From positions 31,472-95,471 of the forward strand of contig JACQVF010000115.1 of NCBI GenBank assembly GCA_016209885.1: a stretch of 64,000 nt of DNA, in the 5' to 3' direction. Below, one piece after another: positions 26,338 through 37,429 of the stretch. The position numbers were made by a program, and so were the translations under genes. Below the pieces are notes generated by a model. It was not told where the DNA came from and did no database searches. It saw only the letters and a program-made list of their open reading frames with translations. The DNA comes from Gemmatimonadota bacterium (lineage in GTDB: Bacteria > Gemmatimonadota > Gemmatimonadetes > Longimicrobiales > Gaopeijiaceae). How positions within the stretch are numbered: position 1 is the stretch's first letter; each line of letters starts with the position of its first letter.

Positions 26338-27965
26338 TGAACGCGTGTGTGCGCGCCCCGAGGTTCTGGACCGCCGCGCTCGCGTGGCTGCTGGCGGGCG
26401 CGGCTTCCCTGCCAGCTCAGGAGCGGGCGTTCTGGCGTCCCGAGGACCGCGCCGTGCTTACGGCGTTCCACGAGATCGAGGCGCTAGCCCGTGACGAGCG
26501 AAGGATCTACGCCGCGACGCCGCGCGGGCTCGCCATCTACGACTTCGTGGCGGCGCGCTGGGAGTTGCCATCCACGGAGGAGGATGGCTACCCGGTAGGC
26601 CAGATCCCCACAGCTACGGCGTTCGACCCGGCCAGCCGCGCCGTATGGCTGGCCACGGCGGACGGCGCCCTCTTCTCCTTTCAGGCCGACCTGCAGCGCT
26701 GGGATGCGTGGGGTCCGGCCGCCACGGGCCCGATCCTGCGGATCGTGCCCGCGTCAGGTCTCCCCGCGGCGTGGGGCGAAAGTGGGCTGTATGTCCTGAC
26801 GCGGGCGGGGTGGTATCGCGTAGCACGGTTCGGCGGCCCCGCCGAGCCGGTGCCCGCCGGGCGGCTGCCGCCGGAGCTCGTTCGCGCGGCCGAGTCCGTC
26901 GAGGCGCGAATCTCGGGCGCCGACCCGTTCTTCGCCGCGGTGCGTGGTACGCTCGCCCTGGACGCCATGCTCCGCAGGTGGCCGATCACGGACTACGTGG
27001 CGGACGATCGGCCCAACCGGTACTGGATCGCAACGCGTGGCGGGCATCTCCTGCACTACGATAGTCGGTTCATGCGCGCCGAGCCGCGCCCGTTCGGGTT
27101 GCTCACCGTCGGTGTGCAGTCTCTGGCTGCTGACGGCGCTGGGGGCATCTGGTTCGGAGGCGATGGCCGCGGGACGAGGCGCGGCGTGACCTGGGGCTCC
27201 GATCGCATGCAGGCGTGGCGATACTACGAGGCGGGGATCACGGGCGCGCCAGCAGGTCCAGTGTTCGACATGGTGGGCTCGGGCGCGGCGACCTGGTTCG
27301 CCGCGCCAGACGGACTCCACCGCCTCGACCTCGAGACGCAGCGCTGGCGGCGCTGGACCGAAGCCGACGGGCTGCCGTCGGCGACGGCGTACGCGCTGGA
27401 ACCGGCGCCCGACGGTGGCGTGTGGGTCGGCACGGCGGCAGGGCCGGCACGGGTGACCGCGGACGGGACGGTAGCCGCTGTATCGCTGGGTGCCCGCCAG
27501 CCGGCACGCGCGCTGCTGCTCCTCCGGGATACCCTCTGGGTCGGCGGCGATCTGGGAGTCTTCTGGCTGCTCGCCGACGGAGTCGCCTACCCGGCCACGG
27601 ACGGGGCCGGAGCAGCGCCGCCCGCACCGGTGCTGGATCTGGCGGTGACAGCGGGCGCAGTGTGGGCGCTGGCGTCAGATGCGCTTTGGCGGTGGGACGG
27701 CCAGCACTGGGACGGCCCGCAGCGTGAGGTCGCGCTCGAGGGCCTGGGTCGGCTCGCACGCCTGCGCGTCGATGGACCGGTTGTGTGGGTGGCCGGAAGC
27801 GGTGGGATCGCGCACCGCGACGCCGGGACCGGAACCTGGCGAATCTACCGCGTGGGCGCCACCATTCCCCGGGGTCCCGTGACCGACGTGCTGCCGGAGC
27901 GAGAGGTCGTGTATGCTGCGACGCCGGCCGGAGCCGTGAGGATCGCATGGACGCGCCTTCCCTGA
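26337..27965 (+). CDS. Secreted beta-propeller protein (Reg_prop-like two-component-regulator propeller repeats)
   Basis: GTG overlaps the nnr stop. Signal peptide, then repeated W..GT..GL blades (VWLATADGAL, IWFGGDGRG, VWVGTAAGPA, LWVGGDLGVF, VWVAGSGGIA). Confidence 0.65.
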   Translation: MNACVRAPRFWTAALAWLLAGAASLPAQERAFWRPEDRAVLTAFHEIEALARDERRIYAATPRGLAIYDFVAARWELPSTEEDGYPVGQIPTATAFDPASRAVWLATADGALFSFQADLQRWDAWGPAATGPILRIVPASGLPAAWGESGLYVLTRAGWYRVARFGGPAEPVPAGRLPPELVRAAESVEARISGADPFFAAVRGTLALDAMLRRWPITDYVADDRPNRYWIATRGGHLLHYDSRFMRAEPRPFGLLTVGVQSLAADGAGGIWFGGDGRGTRRGVTWGSDRMQAWRYYEAGITGAPAGPVFDMVGSGAATWFAAPDGLHRLDLETQRWRRWTEADGLPSATAYALEPAPDGGVWVGTAAGPARVTADGTVAAVSLGARQPARALLLLRDTLWVGGDLGVFWLLADGVAYPATDGAGAAPPAPVLDLAVTAGAVWALASDALWRWDGQHWDGPQREVALEGLGRLARLRVDGPVVWVAGSGGIAHRDAGTGTWRIYRVGATIPRGPVTDVLPEREVVYAATPAGAVRIAWTRLP

Positions 27966-28029
27966 GCACGAGCGGCGCTTCTCAGCGCGGCGGGCACTCT
28001 CGGCGCCGGTCGCGAAGCGGAGGCGGCCG

Positions 28030-29054
28030 GTGAGCGGGCCCGGGTCCGGCGGCGCGCGGACGGTGCGCCTGGGACCGGGGGCAGAGTTCGACCTGATCCG
28101 CCGTATCCTCGGCCGCTCCGAGCCGCCAGCCCTCGGTGCCGTGCGCGTGGGGCCCGGCGACGACTGTGCGGTCGTCCAGGGAGATGGGATCGCGATCTCG
28201 TGCGACCTCAGCGTCGAGGATGTCCATTTCCGGCGCGCCTGGCTGGAGCCCGAGGAGATCGGCTACCGCGCCGCTGCGGCGGCGCTGAGCGACCTGGCGG
28301 CGGTGGCGGCGGCGCCCATCGGGATCCTGGCGGCGATGGCGATCCCCGCGCGCGACGGCGAAGCCGTCGGGTTGCAGGTTGCCGAGGGGATCACTGCCGC
28401 GGCCCGGGACGTGGGCGCCGCGCTCCTGGGCGGGGACGTTTCCCGGTCGCCGGGACCCCTGGTCATCGACGTCATCGCGGTGGGAGAGGCACCGAATCCG
28501 ATCCTGCGCAGCGGCGCGAGGCCGCAGGATGAGCTCTGGGTCACCGGCGAGCTGGGGTGTAGTGCCGCGGTGGTGCGCCAGCTTCAGGTGCAGGGAACGC
28601 CGGGCGCGGAGGCCCGCCAGCGTTTCGCCCGGCCCCGCCCCCGCACCACCGAGGCACGCTGGCTGGCCGCGCACGTGGAGCTCCATGCCATGATCGATCT
28701 CTCCGACGGGCTCGCCGGCGACGCGGGGCACATCGCGGCCGCCAGCGGGGTCGCGGTCGTCCTGGACCTGGAGGGCATTCCGATTCACGCGGCGGCGCGT
28801 GAGGTGGCGGCCACCCACGAGGACGCGCTGCGGCTCGCTCTTGCGGGTGGCGAGGACTACGAGCTCTGCTTCGCGGCGCCCGCGGGTGCCGTGGAGCCGG
28901 TGCGCGAGGCGTTCAGGGAGCGATTCGGGATCGCGCTCACCCGGGCGGGCCGCGTCACGGAGGGGGAGGGGGTGTGGGTCGAGGATCCCGTTGGCGGCCG
29001 ACCCCGGCCGACTCCCTTCCGCGGCTTCGACCATTTCCGCGGCGGAGTGTCCGC

Positions 29055-29058
<4 letters not shown>
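28030..29058 (+). CDS. thiL: Thiamine-monophosphate kinase
   Basis: AIR-synthase-related fold motifs (GPGDDCAVV, EDVHF, LGGDVSRSP). Confidence 0.8.
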
Positions 29059-32820: not shown

Positions 32821-32893
32821 GGCGGCGTAGCTCAGCTGGTAGAGCAGCGGAATCATAATCCGTGGGTCGGGGGTTCGAATCCCTCCGCCGCTA
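32821..32893 (+). tRNA. tRNA with CAT anticodon (elongator Met or lysidine-modified Ile2; not initiator-like)
   Basis: Manual cloverleaf: acceptor GGCGGCG/CGCCGCT, D-arm GCTC-AGCTGGTA-GAGC, anticodon stem GCGGA/TCCGT, loop ATCATAA (CAT), T-arm GGGGG-TTCGAAT-CCCTC, discriminator A. No encoded CCA. The anticodon stem lacks the three G-C pairs of initiator tRNA. Confidence 0.8.
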
Positions 32894-33002
32894 CTTGTCC
32901 TACTTTGGACAGGCCAGCGACTTCGGTTGTTGGCCTGTTCGCGTTCTCCGGCCTTGACCCTGTACCTGAGTATAGAGTGCAGATTCCGCCGAGGTGAAGA
33001 AC

Positions 33003-33440
33003 ATGACGAGCCACGAACGCCTGCGCATCGGCACGGTTGCCGCCCGAGCCGGGGTGAACGTGCAGACGCTCCGGTACTACGAGCGGCGCGGGCTCCTCGC
33101 GAGACCGGAGCGCTCGCCGTCCGGCTATCGCGAATACGGACCGGAGACGGTGCGGATCATTCGCTTCATCAAGCGCGCCCAGGAGCTCGGCTTCACGCTG
33201 CGCGAGATCCAGGATCTGTTGCGCCTGCGCGAGGCGGGCGGCCGGAACCGCCGCCGGGCGCGACAACTCGCCGGTGCGAAGATCCAGGACGTCGATCAGA
33301 AGATCTGGCGGCTTCAGTCCATCAAGCGGGCGCTGGTGACGCTCGTCGAGTCGTGCGCGTGCGCCGGTTCCGAGCCCGAGTGCCCGATCCTCGAGGCGCT
33401 GGATGACGACGCTGTGGAACGGAACGGAGGGGCGCGATGA
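33003..33440 (+). CDS. MerR-family metal-responsive transcriptional regulator
   Basis: N-terminal HTH (RIGTVAARAGVNVQTLRYYERRGLL), coiled-coil dimerisation region, C-terminal Cys cluster CACAGSEPEC typical of metal-sensing MerR/ZntR/CueR-type proteins. Confidence 0.8.
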   Translation: MTSHERLRIGTVAARAGVNVQTLRYYERRGLLARPERSPSGYREYGPETVRIIRFIKRAQELGFTLREIQDLLRLREAGGRNRRRARQLAGAKIQDVDQKIWRLQSIKRALVTLVESCACAGSEPECPILEALDDDAVERNGGAR

Positions 33441-33721
33441 CGCTCGGAACCCGGCCGTGGCGGCTTCCGGCGTATGCATCGCTCTTCGCCTCCTTCGCCA
33501 CCCTGGCGTGCTGCGCGCTGCCCTCGCTCCTCGTTCTGCTGGGCTTTGGGGCAAGCGTCGCGTCCTTTCTCTCCGCAGCTCCCTGGTTGGTTGTCCTGTC
33601 CCGCCACAAGGACTGGGTGTTTGCCGTTGCCGGGCTCCTGATCGCATTCAACGCCTATTGCGTGTACGGGCTGGTGCCTCGCACGGCGGGGCGAGGCCTG
33701 CGGTGTACGGCGGACGAGTAG
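33437..33721 (+). CDS. MerT-like mercuric/heavy-metal transport protein, interrupted by an in-frame TAG (same frame continues to 33844)
   Basis: ATG overlaps the merR stop. First TM carries the MerT Cys-Cys pair (TLACCALPSLLVLLGFG). After the TAG at 33719-33721 the same frame encodes QAC...GLYALGFFVAYLLGPIL, resembling MerT loop Cys plus TM3. Could be a pseudogene, a MerF-like 2-TM variant, or a sequencing error. Confidence 0.5.
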   Translation: MTLGTRPWRLPAYASLFASFATLACCALPSLLVLLGFGASVASFLSAAPWLVVLSRHKDWVFAVAGLLIAFNAYCVYGLVPRTAGRGLRCTADE

Positions 33722-33840
33722 CAGGCGTGCGAGGCCGCGGGCCGCTTCAGCCGACTGCTGCTCTGGGGGTCCGTGGGTCTGTACGCCCTCGGCTTCTTCG
33801 TTGCATACCTTCTGGGTCCGATCCTCTGGAGGCTCGACGC

Positions 33841-34695
33841 ATGAAGCTCCGGGTGCTCGGACTGCTGCTCTTCGCCTTCTCGCCACTCCTCGCGTCGAGC
33901 GCGGCGGCTCAGGGCCACGGGCCAGCGTACGGGCTCTCCACGCCCACGCTGGGCAAGGGCGGCTGGAGTGTGGACGTGGCCGTGATGAGCAGGCTGGTCG
34001 GCAGCACCGAGATGGCGATGATGCGCCCGATGATCACCTACGGGATCACGGAAGACGTTCAGGTGTCGGTCTCGCTGCCGATGTCGCTCTACGTGCCACA
34101 AGGCTTGCCGGCGGCGCACTCGATGGCCAGAATGCCGACGAGTCCCGATATCGAGGCGCTGCTGGGCTGGCGGTTCCATCGCGAAGGGACAGCCGTCGGC
34201 TCCCGCCTGGAGTCGACCGCGTACGTGGGCTTCGACTATCCGACGGACCCGGTGCGTGGGGGTGCGCGCACCGCGCCCGGCCTCTACGGAGCGGTGGTCA
34301 CGGGCTACGCGTCCCGGACCATCTATGGATGGGTGGGAGGGCTCTACCGGCGCTACATGACCCCGATCGGTGATACGGCCGATCATCCCGCCGATGTCGC
34401 GATGTACAGTGTCGTGCTCGGATACCGTCCACCGCCCTTCCGGAAGGACTACCCGCACCCCGACTGGCGCGTGTTTGTCGAAGCGGTCGGGGAGCACCTC
34501 GCGAGAGATGTCGTCGTCGGCGTACCCCGCGCCGACACGGGCGGCCACCAGATCTTCGTGGGACCGACGCTCCTCGGGCTCTACGGCTCGTGGGGCGTGT
34601 CGGGTGGCCCGGTGTTCCCCGTCTACCGCCGGGTGAACGGCTCGCAGCTCCGGGAACGGATGCGGTTCGTCGTGAACACCACTTTCTGGTTCTGA
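33841..34695 (+). CDS. Outer-membrane beta-barrel protein (signal peptide, C-terminal ...TTFWF)
   Basis: Cleavable signal peptide MKLRVLGLLLFAFSPLLASSAAAQ, alternating beta-strand pattern, C-terminal aromatic residue typical of OMPs; 284 aa. Confidence 0.5.
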   Translation: MKLRVLGLLLFAFSPLLASSAAAQGHGPAYGLSTPTLGKGGWSVDVAVMSRLVGSTEMAMMRPMITYGITEDVQVSVSLPMSLYVPQGLPAAHSMARMPTSPDIEALLGWRFHREGTAVGSRLESTAYVGFDYPTDPVRGGARTAPGLYGAVVTGYASRTIYGWVGGLYRRYMTPIGDTADHPADVAMYSVVLGYRPPPFRKDYPHPDWRVFVEAVGEHLARDVVVGVPRADTGGHQIFVGPTLLGLYGSWGVSGGPVFPVYRRVNGSQLRERMRFVVNTTFWF

Positions 34696-34707
34696 CGAGG
34701 AGCAGGT

Positions 34708-35229
34708 ATGAAGCGCGCGGCGTTGTGGGTCGCCTTCCTGGTTGCGCTCGCTCCCGGCAGCGCCCCGGCTCAGCTCGAGGAGATGCATCAGACCATCTTC
34801 GGGATGGACTGAGCGGTCTGTGCCCACGCCGTGCGCGTGGCCGTGCAGAAGCTCGAGGGCGTGGAAGCCATCGAGGTCAGCCTGAACCGGGGACTTGCCG
34901 TGATCAGGTTCAGGCCCGACAACGCCCTGACCGTGGATCAGGTGCGCCAGGTGATCCAGCAGAGCGGGTTCACGCCCAAGGAGGCCGAGGTTCGCATCGC
35001 CGGCAGGCTGACCGAGCAGCAGGGCCGGCTCATCTTGCCCGTGGGCGACCGGGACCGCGGCTATGTGCTGCGGGAACGGCCCGGATTCGATGGAGTGCTC
35101 GCGAAGCTCAGGGCGGCGGCACTCGACCGCGAGGTGGTCGTTGAAGGGCTGGTGCCCGAACCCGGCGACCGCGGGGAGGGCTCCTGGACGCTGGAAGTGC
35201 GCCGGTTCTCCGCGACCTCCGGAACCTGA
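34708..35229 (+). CDS. Periplasmic heavy-metal-associated (MerP-like) protein, candidate selenoprotein: in-frame TGA (34810-34812) at the first Cys of the GMxCxxC motif
   Basis: AGGAG RBS 7 nt upstream. Signal peptide, then TIFGMD-[TGA]-AVCAHAV aligning residue-for-residue with the HMA/MerP GMTCAAC metal-binding loop. The frame stays open and the downstream sequence fits the HMA ferredoxin-like fold (VQKLEGVEAIEVSL...), with a ~100-aa C-terminal extension. Confidence 0.6.
34824..34840 (+). promoter_or_regulatory. Candidate bacterial SECIS hairpin for the HMA TGA (stem CCACGC/GCGTGG, loop CGUGC)
   Basis: Hairpin begins 11 nt after the TGA, the spacing seen for the E. coli fdhF SECIS. Only 6 bp, so it could arise by chance in GC-rich DNA. 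Confidence 0.3.
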
Positions 35230-36887: not shown

Positions 36888-36958
36888 GCGCAGCTTCGCC
36901 GGCCGGCCGTCTCTGCAGGCTCGCTTGAGAACCAGCTCTCGAACTCGTGGAGGCCGGG

Positions 36959-37429
36959 ATGGCAGACGTCGTCTACACCTCGGAGGTACGCATCGAGCGG
37001 GTGGGAGGGCCGCTGCGCCGGGCCTACCTGCCCGCCGAGGAGCAGCCGGTGCACTTCGGGATGCACGGCGCCCTCGCCCAGCACTACAAGGTCGATCCGG
37101 CGGCCCTCAAGCCACATGCGGCCACGTTGGATTACGTGGTCGCCGCGGCCGCCGGGTGACTGACCGGCACCCTGGGGGGCGCGCTGGAGGCGCGCGGGAT
37201 TGCGGCGGGGGACGGCCGACTCTGGGCCGAGGGGCGCGGCGAGATCGAGACCGATGAGGGCGTGCTCGTCATCCGTCGCATCTTCGTGTGCTACCACTTG
37301 CGGGCGAGCGCGTCACAGCGCGAGGCGGCGGAGCGGGCTCATTCCGTCCACCACGGGAAGTGCCCCGTCTACCGCACGATCCACCGCTGCGTGGACATCA
37401 CGACGGAGCTCGTGCTCGAGGAGGATTGA
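36959..37429 (+). CDS. OsmC/Ohr-family peroxiredoxin-like protein, candidate selenoprotein: in-frame TGA (37157-37159) at the peroxidatic Cys
   Basis: GGAGG 5 nt before the ATG at 36959. ...ATLDYVVAAAAG-[TGA]-LTGTL matches the OsmC first-Cys motif (P.ELLLAALAGC). The frame stays open to 37429 and contains the second OsmC motif HHGKCPVYRTI (CPVS-like resolving Cys). 156 codons, normal for the family. Confidence 0.65.
37179..37195 (+). promoter_or_regulatory. Candidate SECIS hairpin for the OsmC TGA (stem GCGCGC/GCGCGC, loop UGGAG)
   Basis: Stem starts 19 nt after the TGA; the apical loop with GG lies ~28 nt from the UGA, within the typical bacterial SECIS range. Confidence 0.3.

Follow-up and report, generated by a model that had tools for sequence, protein, structure and literature searches.

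The 64,000-nucleotide stretch of Gemmatimonadota DNA analysed here (the window; contig JACQVF010000115.1 of assembly GCA_016209885.1, positions 31,472 to 95,471 of the forward strand) contains a gene for a small secreted protein that joins a heavy-metal-associated (HMA) domain to a predicted C-terminal OB-fold, and whose reading frame is interrupted by a TGA exactly at the first metal-ligand position. We refer to this gene as the HMA-OB gene, and on the evidence presented below we regard it as very probably encoding a selenoprotein, with UGA 34810-34812 specifying selenocysteine (Sec, U). An initial annotation, made from the letters of the sequence alone, had described a periplasmic metal-binding protein with a UxxC site at this place; its coordinates, ribosome-binding site, TGA, open frame to 35229 and downstream hairpin were all recovered from the sequence and its translation. 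The gene and its elements are arranged as follows.

34698..34702, plus strand: Shine-Dalgarno-like AGGAG, 5 nt 5' of ATG 34708, read from the sequence
34708..35229, plus strand: open reading frame (ORF) of the proposed HMA-OB selenoprotein, 173 codons plus stop, with signal peptide, HMA domain with D-U-x-x-C site and OB-fold
34708..34770, plus strand: predicted signal peptide of the Sec (secretion) pathway, MKRAALWVAFLVALAPGSAPA, with cleavage after A-P-A suggested by sequence features
34795..34971, plus strand: HMA ferredoxin-like domain
34810..34812, plus strand: in-frame UGA, proposed Sec codon, in place of the first Cys codon of the GM(D)CxxC metal loop
34824..34840, plus strand: hairpin resembling a selenocysteine insertion sequence (SECIS), 6-bp stem CCACGC/GCGUGG and 5-nt loop CGUGC, 11 nt after the UGA
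34984..35214, plus strand: C-terminal OB-fold-like beta-barrel of five strands with a helix between strands 3 and 4

The HMA-OB reading frame

The TGA at 34810-34812 is the sole interruption of the frame that opens at 34708, which then remains open until TGA 35227-35229. In translation the N-terminus is signal-peptide-like and continues directly into QLEE, and the TGA itself stands in the context ...HQTIFGMD-*-AVCAHAVRVAVQKLEGVEAIEVSLNRGLAVIRF... When U is replaced by Cys, the protein matches the Pfam model HMA PF00403 over residues 30-88 with an E-value of 3.2e-12 (47.1 bits, against a cut-off of 24.8), as had been anticipated from the sequence, and in an alignment to solved HMA domains the TGA column coincides with the first metal-binding Cys of GMTCxxC in ATP7B, CopZ, MerP and ZntA. 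The domain has the beta-alpha-beta-beta-alpha-beta order of an HMA fold, with its two ligands in the loop between beta1 and alpha1 and in the helix.

TGA and Cys forms among homologues

The first protein search yielded ten homologues, and the DNA was examined for six. All close homologues from this search, including the database entry of the window gene itself, are annotated from a start codon just 3' of the TGA position, and six homologue loci share the same layout: a signal-peptide ORF of 30-36 codons, an in-frame TGA, and the HMA body. One homologue (P0007, locus L005) is full-length and reads FGMDCAPCAY.

A scan of species-representative genomes gave 35 loci, with TGA at the U column in 26 and TGC or TGT in 7 family members; further examples of both forms were found in metagenomes. 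The alternation between Cys and Sec that the initial annotation had proposed to look for at this column is thus present. The TGA loci belong to Gemmatimonadales, Longimicrobiales, Vicinamibacteria, Bryobacteraceae, other Acidobacteriota and one metagenome-assembled genome (MAG) labelled 'Deltaproteobacteria'. Those with TGC or TGT come from Steroidobacteraceae, Lysobacterales (including the isolate Novilysobacter longmucuonensis), Polycyclovorans, one unclassified gammaproteobacterium and two Acidobacteriota. Over all sources, TGC or TGT was seen at this column in L005, L029, L032, L034-L037, L039 and L044. Cys orthologues sit in the same gene neighbourhood as the TGA forms.

The in-frame TGA is kept in every one of the 30 distinct DNA sequences of the Sec subgroup (protein identity 35-66%), and a sequencing error at 34810-34812 is thereby excluded. 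All 30 read in a single frame ...Q-x-I-[FY]-G-M-D-TGA-[AS]-[VI]-C-A-H-A-V... On the 5' side of the TGA the signal peptides diverge freely, with a basic N-terminus, a hydrophobic core and A-x-A followed by QL as their constant features, while Q-x-I-[FY]-G-M-D, corresponding to beta1 and the metal loop, is conserved; this is the pattern predicted for one continuous coding sequence. The residue before U is D in 29 of the 30 and E in the remaining one, and the second ligand is always Cys (TGT or TGC, 30/30). In one Gemmatimonadota MAG (L019, 5956-6100) the end of the upstream gene, which encodes a secreted protein of about 285 aa, runs in frame into ...AEMRQTIFGMD-TGA... with no signal peptide between, an apparent deletion or fusion, or else an assembly artefact.

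A hairpin confined to the TGA forms

The hairpin downstream of the TGA consists of the arms CCACGC (34824-34829) and GCGUGG (34835-34840) around the loop CGUGC (34830-34834), and thus occupies positions +12 to +28 after the UGA. The motif CCACGC-CGUG(C/A)-GCGUGG occurs in 30 of 30 TGA sequences at a constant distance from the UGA and without indels, and is absent from 9 Cys forms; the hairpin noticed in the initial annotation is therefore a property of the TGA forms only. Across the alignment 99.4% of stem cells are paired, compared with 15-61% after a shift of the 3' arm by 1-3 columns. Two stem pairs show compensatory double changes, from C-G to A-U in L026 and from G-C to A-U in L012 and L017; the exceptions are a wobble change in L020 and a broken pair in L031. 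RNAalifold favours a 7-bp stem with a bulged C at 34824, and the 6-bp and 7-bp versions are not distinguishable from these data.

The constraint is also visible at the codon level. Codons +4 to +9 are GCC (28/30), CAC (29/29), GCC (28/28), GTG (30/30), CGC or AGC, and GTG (30/30), so that codon entropy is close to zero across GCC-CAC-GCC-GTG-(C/A)GC-GTG, against 1.1-1.9 bits for the other four-fold codons (Ala, Val, Gly) of the gene. A Cys-form gene (L044) encodes nearly the same peptide, CATCAHGVRVAVQK, as the Sec forms, but does so with the codons GCG-CAT-GGG-GTT-CGC-GTC and forms no stem. The nucleotide constraint hence goes with the TGA and not with the peptide.

Decoding of the UGA

From these observations we infer that Sec is actually inserted at UGA 34810-34812. 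The hairpin at 34824-34840 would act as a bacterial SECIS that recruits SelB with Sec-tRNA(Sec), by analogy with fdhF of E. coli. The fdhF SECIS and the present hairpin are alike in several features: both lie within the coding sequence, and they share an upper stem-loop that begins at 11 nt from the UGA, a loop containing G-U and a possible single-base bulge 5' of the upper stem. The present element, a putative SelB target, differs in its short stem of 6 bp (7 bp in the bulged version) and its 5-nt loop.

Some results weigh against this reading. Neither tRNA-Sec nor selA, selB or selD was found in the 64-kb window or in about 350 kb of related loci, as searched with ARAGORN (window and 43 related loci), with Pfam and NCBIfam on the 20 largest ORFs, and by tblastn with approximate sequences of E. 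coli SelA, SelB and SelD; the indications of a Sec capacity in this genome are consequently indirect. The only AIRS-family ORF, at 27940-29058, is ThiL and not SelD according to the Pfam/NCBIfam scan. In addition, the folding energy of the hairpin as a single sequence is not unusual for GC-rich DNA (z = -1.11); we dropped this measure as evidence, and the case for the hairpin accordingly rests on the comparative data. A search of Rfam at a permissive threshold returned chance-level matches only, and no model scores the hairpin.

Indirect support for a Sec capacity comes from a second conserved Sec/Cys site in the window, which lies in the following gene.

36947-37429: OsmC-like gene with in-frame TGA 37157-37159 (…VVAAAAG-U-LTGTLGG…), 2 kb downstream of the HMA-OB gene

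With U changed to Cys, a Pfam OsmC match spans the TGA (E 3.9e-11). Among the best 120 homologues the U column holds Cys in 46 and 'W' in 41, and in the only locus examined (L045) this 'W' is a TGA codon. The NCBI annotation of the OsmC-like gene covers only its 89-aa C-terminal part (P0188), and a GC-rich hairpin, GCGCGCU-GGA-GGCGCGC, starts 19 nt after its UGA. OsmC-like proteins are an established selenoprotein family (PMC2398784, PMC13188914). Similarly, Acidobacteriota are documented users of Sec (PMC12013277); in the open-access literature we found no paper that addresses Sec use in Gemmatimonadota.

Were the UGA recoded otherwise, with Cys delivered by a tRNA-Sec-like Cys-tRNA and a SelB-type factor, or with Trp or Cys inserted by hairpin-stimulated near-cognate read-through, the full-length product would arise without selenium. 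UGA-to-Cys recoding tRNAs have been reported in some bacteria, which counts in favour of such a mechanism, as does the outcome of the search for Sec machinery; moreover, a conserved TGA, a hairpin and Cys orthologues cannot by themselves identify the inserted residue. However, a TGA together with a constrained hairpin brings no obvious gain for the insertion of Cys, for which TGC suffices, as in the gammaproteobacterial orthologues, and Trp at a metal-ligand position would destroy the site. The second window gene, belonging to a listed selenoprotein family, and the documented Sec use of Acidobacteriota likewise speak for Sec, and we consider recoding to another residue highly improbable.

Still less credible is that the TGA is a true stop, in which case the locus would produce a secreted peptide of 34 aa, with or without a truncated cytoplasmic HMA fragment from an internal GTG, or would be a pseudogene or the result of a sequencing error. 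This reading agrees with current annotation, in which the NCBI entry of the window gene (P0001) is a 132-aa fragment from GTG 34831 and most homologues are truncated likewise, and with the neighbouring genes, which end normally with TGA. Yet 30 independent sequences keep the TGA in frame, and the conserved residues on its two sides belong to a single HMA fold, as its beta1 and metal loop, from which a separate peptide would split the signal peptide; the truncated product would have lost the signal peptide and beta1 together with one of the metal ligands. Gene callers do not agree on the start, which they place at codon +2 in some sequences and at +7 or later in others. The window has GTC, which is no start codon, at +2, and the start at 34831, given as ATG in the initial annotation, is in fact a GTG within the hairpin loop with no purine run resembling a ribosome-binding site on its 5' side. 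The suggestion that the 34-aa peptide and an independently initiated downstream ORF might be the real products is contradicted by these observations. A true stop would also leave the synonymous constraint and the covariation of the hairpin unexplained. Finally, a global reassignment of UGA was rejected, as TGA ends both the upstream gene (34693-95) and the HMA-OB gene itself (35227-29).

Family size and annotation

A HMMER search of 1.84 billion cluster representatives recovered 2092 proteins with E <= 1e-3, of which 723 reached E <= 1e-10 and 42 reached E <= 1e-30. We classified 156 proteins, namely the best 150 of this search and six from the first homologue search. The great majority (125) start no more than a few residues past the U column, which is the signature of gene calls truncated at a TGA; a further 29 are full-length with GMDCxxC, and 2 carry W at the U column, assumed to be TGA by likeness to the OsmC-like family. 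The query profile was built mainly from Sec forms, and the ratio of Sec to Cys is biased accordingly; the TGA form is nevertheless clearly common in the family. A tblastn search with the Cys form against plasmids gave no match.

Some metagenome gene calls, mostly from JGI, show W at Sec columns (P0035, P0118; P0157-P0187 and others). A 'W' at a Cys-aligned column of a short metagenomic protein may therefore mark a hidden Sec codon.

The HMA-OB family is large, taxonomically coherent and systematically mis-annotated. The window gene and about 80% of the best-scoring representatives are annotated as truncated 'heavy-metal-associated domain-containing proteins', with signal peptide and one ligand missing, and since no NCBIfam model exists for the family, pipelines will go on truncating its genes.

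Predicted structure of the C-terminal domain

The initial annotation had recorded a C-terminal extension of about 100 aa without recognisable family. The extension is closer to 80 aa, and structure modelling predicts an OB-fold for it (pLDDT 92). Two structures were modelled, that of the Cys orthologue P0007 and that of the post-UGA part of the window protein. The P0007 model (pLDDT 67 overall, 64-90 in the folded part) comprises the HMA domain and a beta-barrel with matches among the OB domains of Asp, Asn and Lys-tRNA synthetases. In the model the barrel is closed and five-stranded with a helix between strands 3 and 4, as expected of an OB-fold, and the last HMA strand continues straight into the first OB strand. 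The isolated OB domain has no sequence match in Pfam, NCBIfam or PDB.

The top Foldseek match of the whole-protein model is CCS, the copper chaperone for SOD1 (PDB 6fp6, 1qup), in which an HMA domain is likewise followed by a beta-barrel domain. The TM-score is, however, low at about 0.3, the second domain of CCS is SOD-like and not an OB-fold, and CCS is a eukaryotic, cytosolic protein, so that the likeness is an analogy only.

Genomic context

The HMA-OB gene is the last of a four-gene cassette, in which it is preceded by genes for a MerR-family regulator, a MerT-like membrane protein and the secreted protein of about 285 aa:

32994..33440, plus strand: MerR-family metal-responsive regulator, first cassette gene (Pfam MerR_1, MerR, MerR-DNA-bind)
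33437..33844, plus strand: gene for a MerT-like small membrane protein, about 135 aa in homologues, with in-frame TAG 33719-33721
33841..34695, plus strand: conserved secreted protein of about 285 aa, with signal-like N-terminus, ending ...TTFWF, stop codon TGA

As found by tblastn with the window neighbours, the cassette is conserved in about 35 loci, across phyla and in both the Sec and the Cys forms. The stop of the regulator gene overlaps the start of the MerT-like gene, and a MerR-like gene lies upstream of the cassette in most related loci. The best NCBIfam match of the regulator is MerR TIGR02051, at 126 bits below the cut-off of 150.85, with the CueR, ZntR and CadR models close behind. 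Its C-terminal cysteines in the pattern C-x-C...C-P are present.

The MerT-like gene is conserved beside the HMA gene in most loci. The protein has a Cys-Cys pair in its first transmembrane helix and C-x7-C in a loop, and gives a weak NCBIfam match to merT_RC607 (E 5e-4). In 15 homologue loci the gene reads through for about 135 aa, with Q (CAG) at the place of the TAG in the window. There, another 40 codons follow the TAG in frame, up to TGA 33842-44, and this stop overlaps the ATG of the next gene (ATGA). The TAG at 33719-33721 is either a nonsense mutation, by which the last of the predicted transmembrane helices would be lost, or an error of assembly or sequencing.

In nearly all loci, Sec and Cys forms alike, the gene for the 285-aa protein immediately precedes the HMA gene, with 40-82% identity by tblastn. 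The protein has no sequence match in Pfam, NCBIfam or PDB; from its signal sequence and C-terminal ...TFWF, it is possibly an outer-membrane beta-barrel. Beside one Sec-form cassette (L001, 1466-2815) there is a second HMA gene of Cys type (…TGLSCPFCAYGLQKKL…), located immediately upstream of an outer-membrane-type gene of PF13557 (Phenol_MetA_deg); the order is opposite to that of the cassette, and the parallel is a loose one.

Immediately downstream of the Sec-HMA cassette of a Gemmatimonadales MAG (L002, 4765-8392, on a contig shared with L009) lies a canonical mer operon of the order merR-T-P-A-B, encoding MerR, MerT, HMA/MerP, a MerA-like flavoprotein reductase and MerB. The two systems are thus physically linked in at least one lineage; L002/L009 is the only place where a canonical mer operon was adjacent. 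In many cassettes the regulator and the MerT-like gene are separated by an additional gene, which the window does not have. The extra gene is MerC-like in L002 (2166-2624) and L003 (2165-2623), while in Novilysobacter (L037, 3930-4700) it joins a soluble N-terminal part (…DFIYDPGCPNV…) to a C-P-V-C membrane domain.

A putative role in metal relay

The mature protein would begin near QLEEMHQTIFGMD-U-AVC and offer a selenolate/thiolate pair with an Asp in front (D-U-x-x-C), by which it might bind a soft, thiophilic metal ion in the periplasm. By established chemistry, Sec would be a fully ionised, more nucleophilic ligand than Cys, with higher affinity. The place of the HMA-OB gene as the last of a cassette with MerR, MerT-like and 285-aa genes makes a MerP-like role the most likely one, in which the metal would be captured in the periplasm and handed by ligand exchange to the MerT-like membrane protein; the OB domain may serve docking. 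The periplasmic location, the identity of the metal and its hand-off are what we infer from these features. That the protein acts as a periplasmic metal chaperone within a MerT-linked relay is plausible, and Hg(II) stands slightly better than an even chance of being its substrate, with Cd, Pb, Zn and Cu(I) as alternatives. The links to mercury are the MerT hallmarks of the membrane partner, the canonical mer operon beside the cassette in L002 and L009, and the MerC-like gene in L002 and L003.

Several findings tell against a mercury relay at this locus. The protein fails the MerP equivalog model (33 bits, cut-off 92.55), and merA was not found in the window. The regulator has no Cys at the position of C82 in Tn501 MerR, as in CueR-type Cu/Ag/Au sensors (in a comparison made with approximate reference sequences of Tn501 MerR and CueR). 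Finally, the premature TAG in the MerT-like partner may mean that the pathway is impaired in this particular MAG.

The same points, in part, support a selenoprotein acting outside mercury import, be it as a periplasmic buffer or chaperone for Cd/Pb/Zn or Cu(I)/Ag(I), or as a redox protein forming a selenylsulfide; the cassette would then work in sequestration, efflux or metallation instead of MerT-type uptake. Indeed, the equivalog threshold of MerR is missed as well as that of MerP, the third Cys typical of Hg(II) MerR proteins is wanting in the window regulator, and merA is absent from the vicinity in most loci as in the window. The invariant Asp before U or C recalls the D-C-x-x-C site for divalent ions of the ZntA type, and matches to ZntA were found; the closest PDB sequence matches of the HMA-OB protein are Cu-ATPase domains. 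Against this stand the membrane partner, with its Cys-Cys pair in the first transmembrane helix, its loop Cys pair and its weak MerT match, and the regulators of the gammaproteobacterial Cys-form cassettes, which show the full three-Cys pattern. Moreover, a canonical merRTPAB operon borders the cassette of L002 and L009, and a MerC-like gene is present in L002 and L003. We think a role outside mercury import rather unlikely.

Relation to known systems

The initial annotation had called the protein MerP-like. This holds loosely, as both proteins combine a signal peptide with an HMA fold whose ligands lie at the end of beta1 and the start of alpha1, both are encoded beside a MerT-type membrane protein under a MerR-type regulator, and structural matches to 1osd as well as sequence matches to 1afi were obtained (MerP: TIGR02052; PDB 1afi, 1osd). 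It does not hold in the stricter sense of the equivalog model. The metal loop is GMD-U-x-x-C here and GMT-C-x-x-C in MerP, and the mature HMA-OB protein of about 150 residues has an extra OB-fold of about 80 aa, whereas MerP is a single domain of about 72; in addition, the 285-aa gene is inserted between the MerT-like and the HMA-OB genes.

Sec in the metal site of an HMA domain is already known. It occurs in a UxxC cation-transporting P-type ATPase (PMC1976440, PMC2398784), Sec-HMA selenoprotein families with a heavy-metal theme have been listed (PMC2398784, PMC13188914), and MerT-like CU selenoproteins have been described (bioRxiv 10.1101/2022.07.06.499078). In these proteins (UxxC ATPase, NF041115, NF045683), as in the HMA-OB protein, Sec replaces a Cys of the HMA CxxC motif in connection with heavy-metal handling. 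Judging by profile scores, however, the HMA-OB family matches none of the existing Sec-HMA models, nor MerP. Its best NCBIfam match, NF041115 ('UxxU metal-binding (seleno)protein'), scores 45.6 bits against a cut-off of 95, and the HMA-OB protein has a single Sec (UxxC); the MerT/CopZ-fusion selenoprotein NF045683 scores 27 bits against 375, and the MerT-like protein is here encoded by a separate gene. Unlike the known Sec-HMA proteins, the HMA-OB protein is predicted to be soluble and secreted, has neither an ATPase nor a fused MerT, and belongs to another operon. The N-terminal HMA domain of ZntA (GMDCAAC; PDB 1mwz) shares the Asp directly before the first ligand of D-C-x-x-C, but is cytoplasmic, fused to an ATPase, and uses Cys instead of Sec. 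A GOS selenoprotein named 'MerP' was rejected as a member of the family, since it reads …APAGTUCQSG… and is unrelated in sequence.

The HMA-OB family is absent from the family table of a 2026 review of prokaryotic selenoproteomes, and we found no description of it in the open-access literature, though one may have appeared elsewhere. That it is an unrecognised, abundant selenoprotein family which acts, in soil Gemmatimonadota and Acidobacteriota, as the periplasmic arm of a non-canonical relay for thiophilic metals is a tentative reading, to which we give a little less than an even chance. The relay would then consist of an unclassified secreted or outer-membrane protein, a Sec-containing HMA-OB chaperone, a MerT-like membrane protein and a MerR-type sensor. 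On the same reading the family would span hundreds of 50%-identity clusters, the TGA form making up about four-fifths of those with the best scores, and selenium supply would directly shape the handling of Hg(II), or of Cd/Pb, in widespread soil bacteria.

Selenium would thereby be tied to the handling of mercury and other heavy metals in Gemmatimonadota and Acidobacteriota, two phyla that are dominant in soil but have been little studied, and the task of Sec would be to bind metal in a trafficking protein, not to catalyse redox reactions. Cultivable Gammaproteobacteria such as Novilysobacter have natural Cys orthologues and so offer a clean comparison of U with C, which bears on what selenium would gain for the protein: metal affinity, exchange kinetics, or resistance to periplasmic oxidation. 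The finding is conceptually unsurprising, and its use lies in annotation and in selenium-metal biochemistry. In particular, the conserved 17-nt hairpin could provide a compact SECIS consensus for Gemmatimonadota and Acidobacteriota with which more selenoprotein genes may be found.

Upstream of the cassette

Scans of the window for promoters and terminators gave nothing usable. A tRNA-Met gene (32821-32894) ends about 100 nt upstream of the MerR-like gene, and between the two lies a 13-nt imperfect inverted repeat at 32909-32938, ACAGGCCAGCGAC / GTTGTTGGCCTGT, which could be a terminator of the tRNA gene or an operator.

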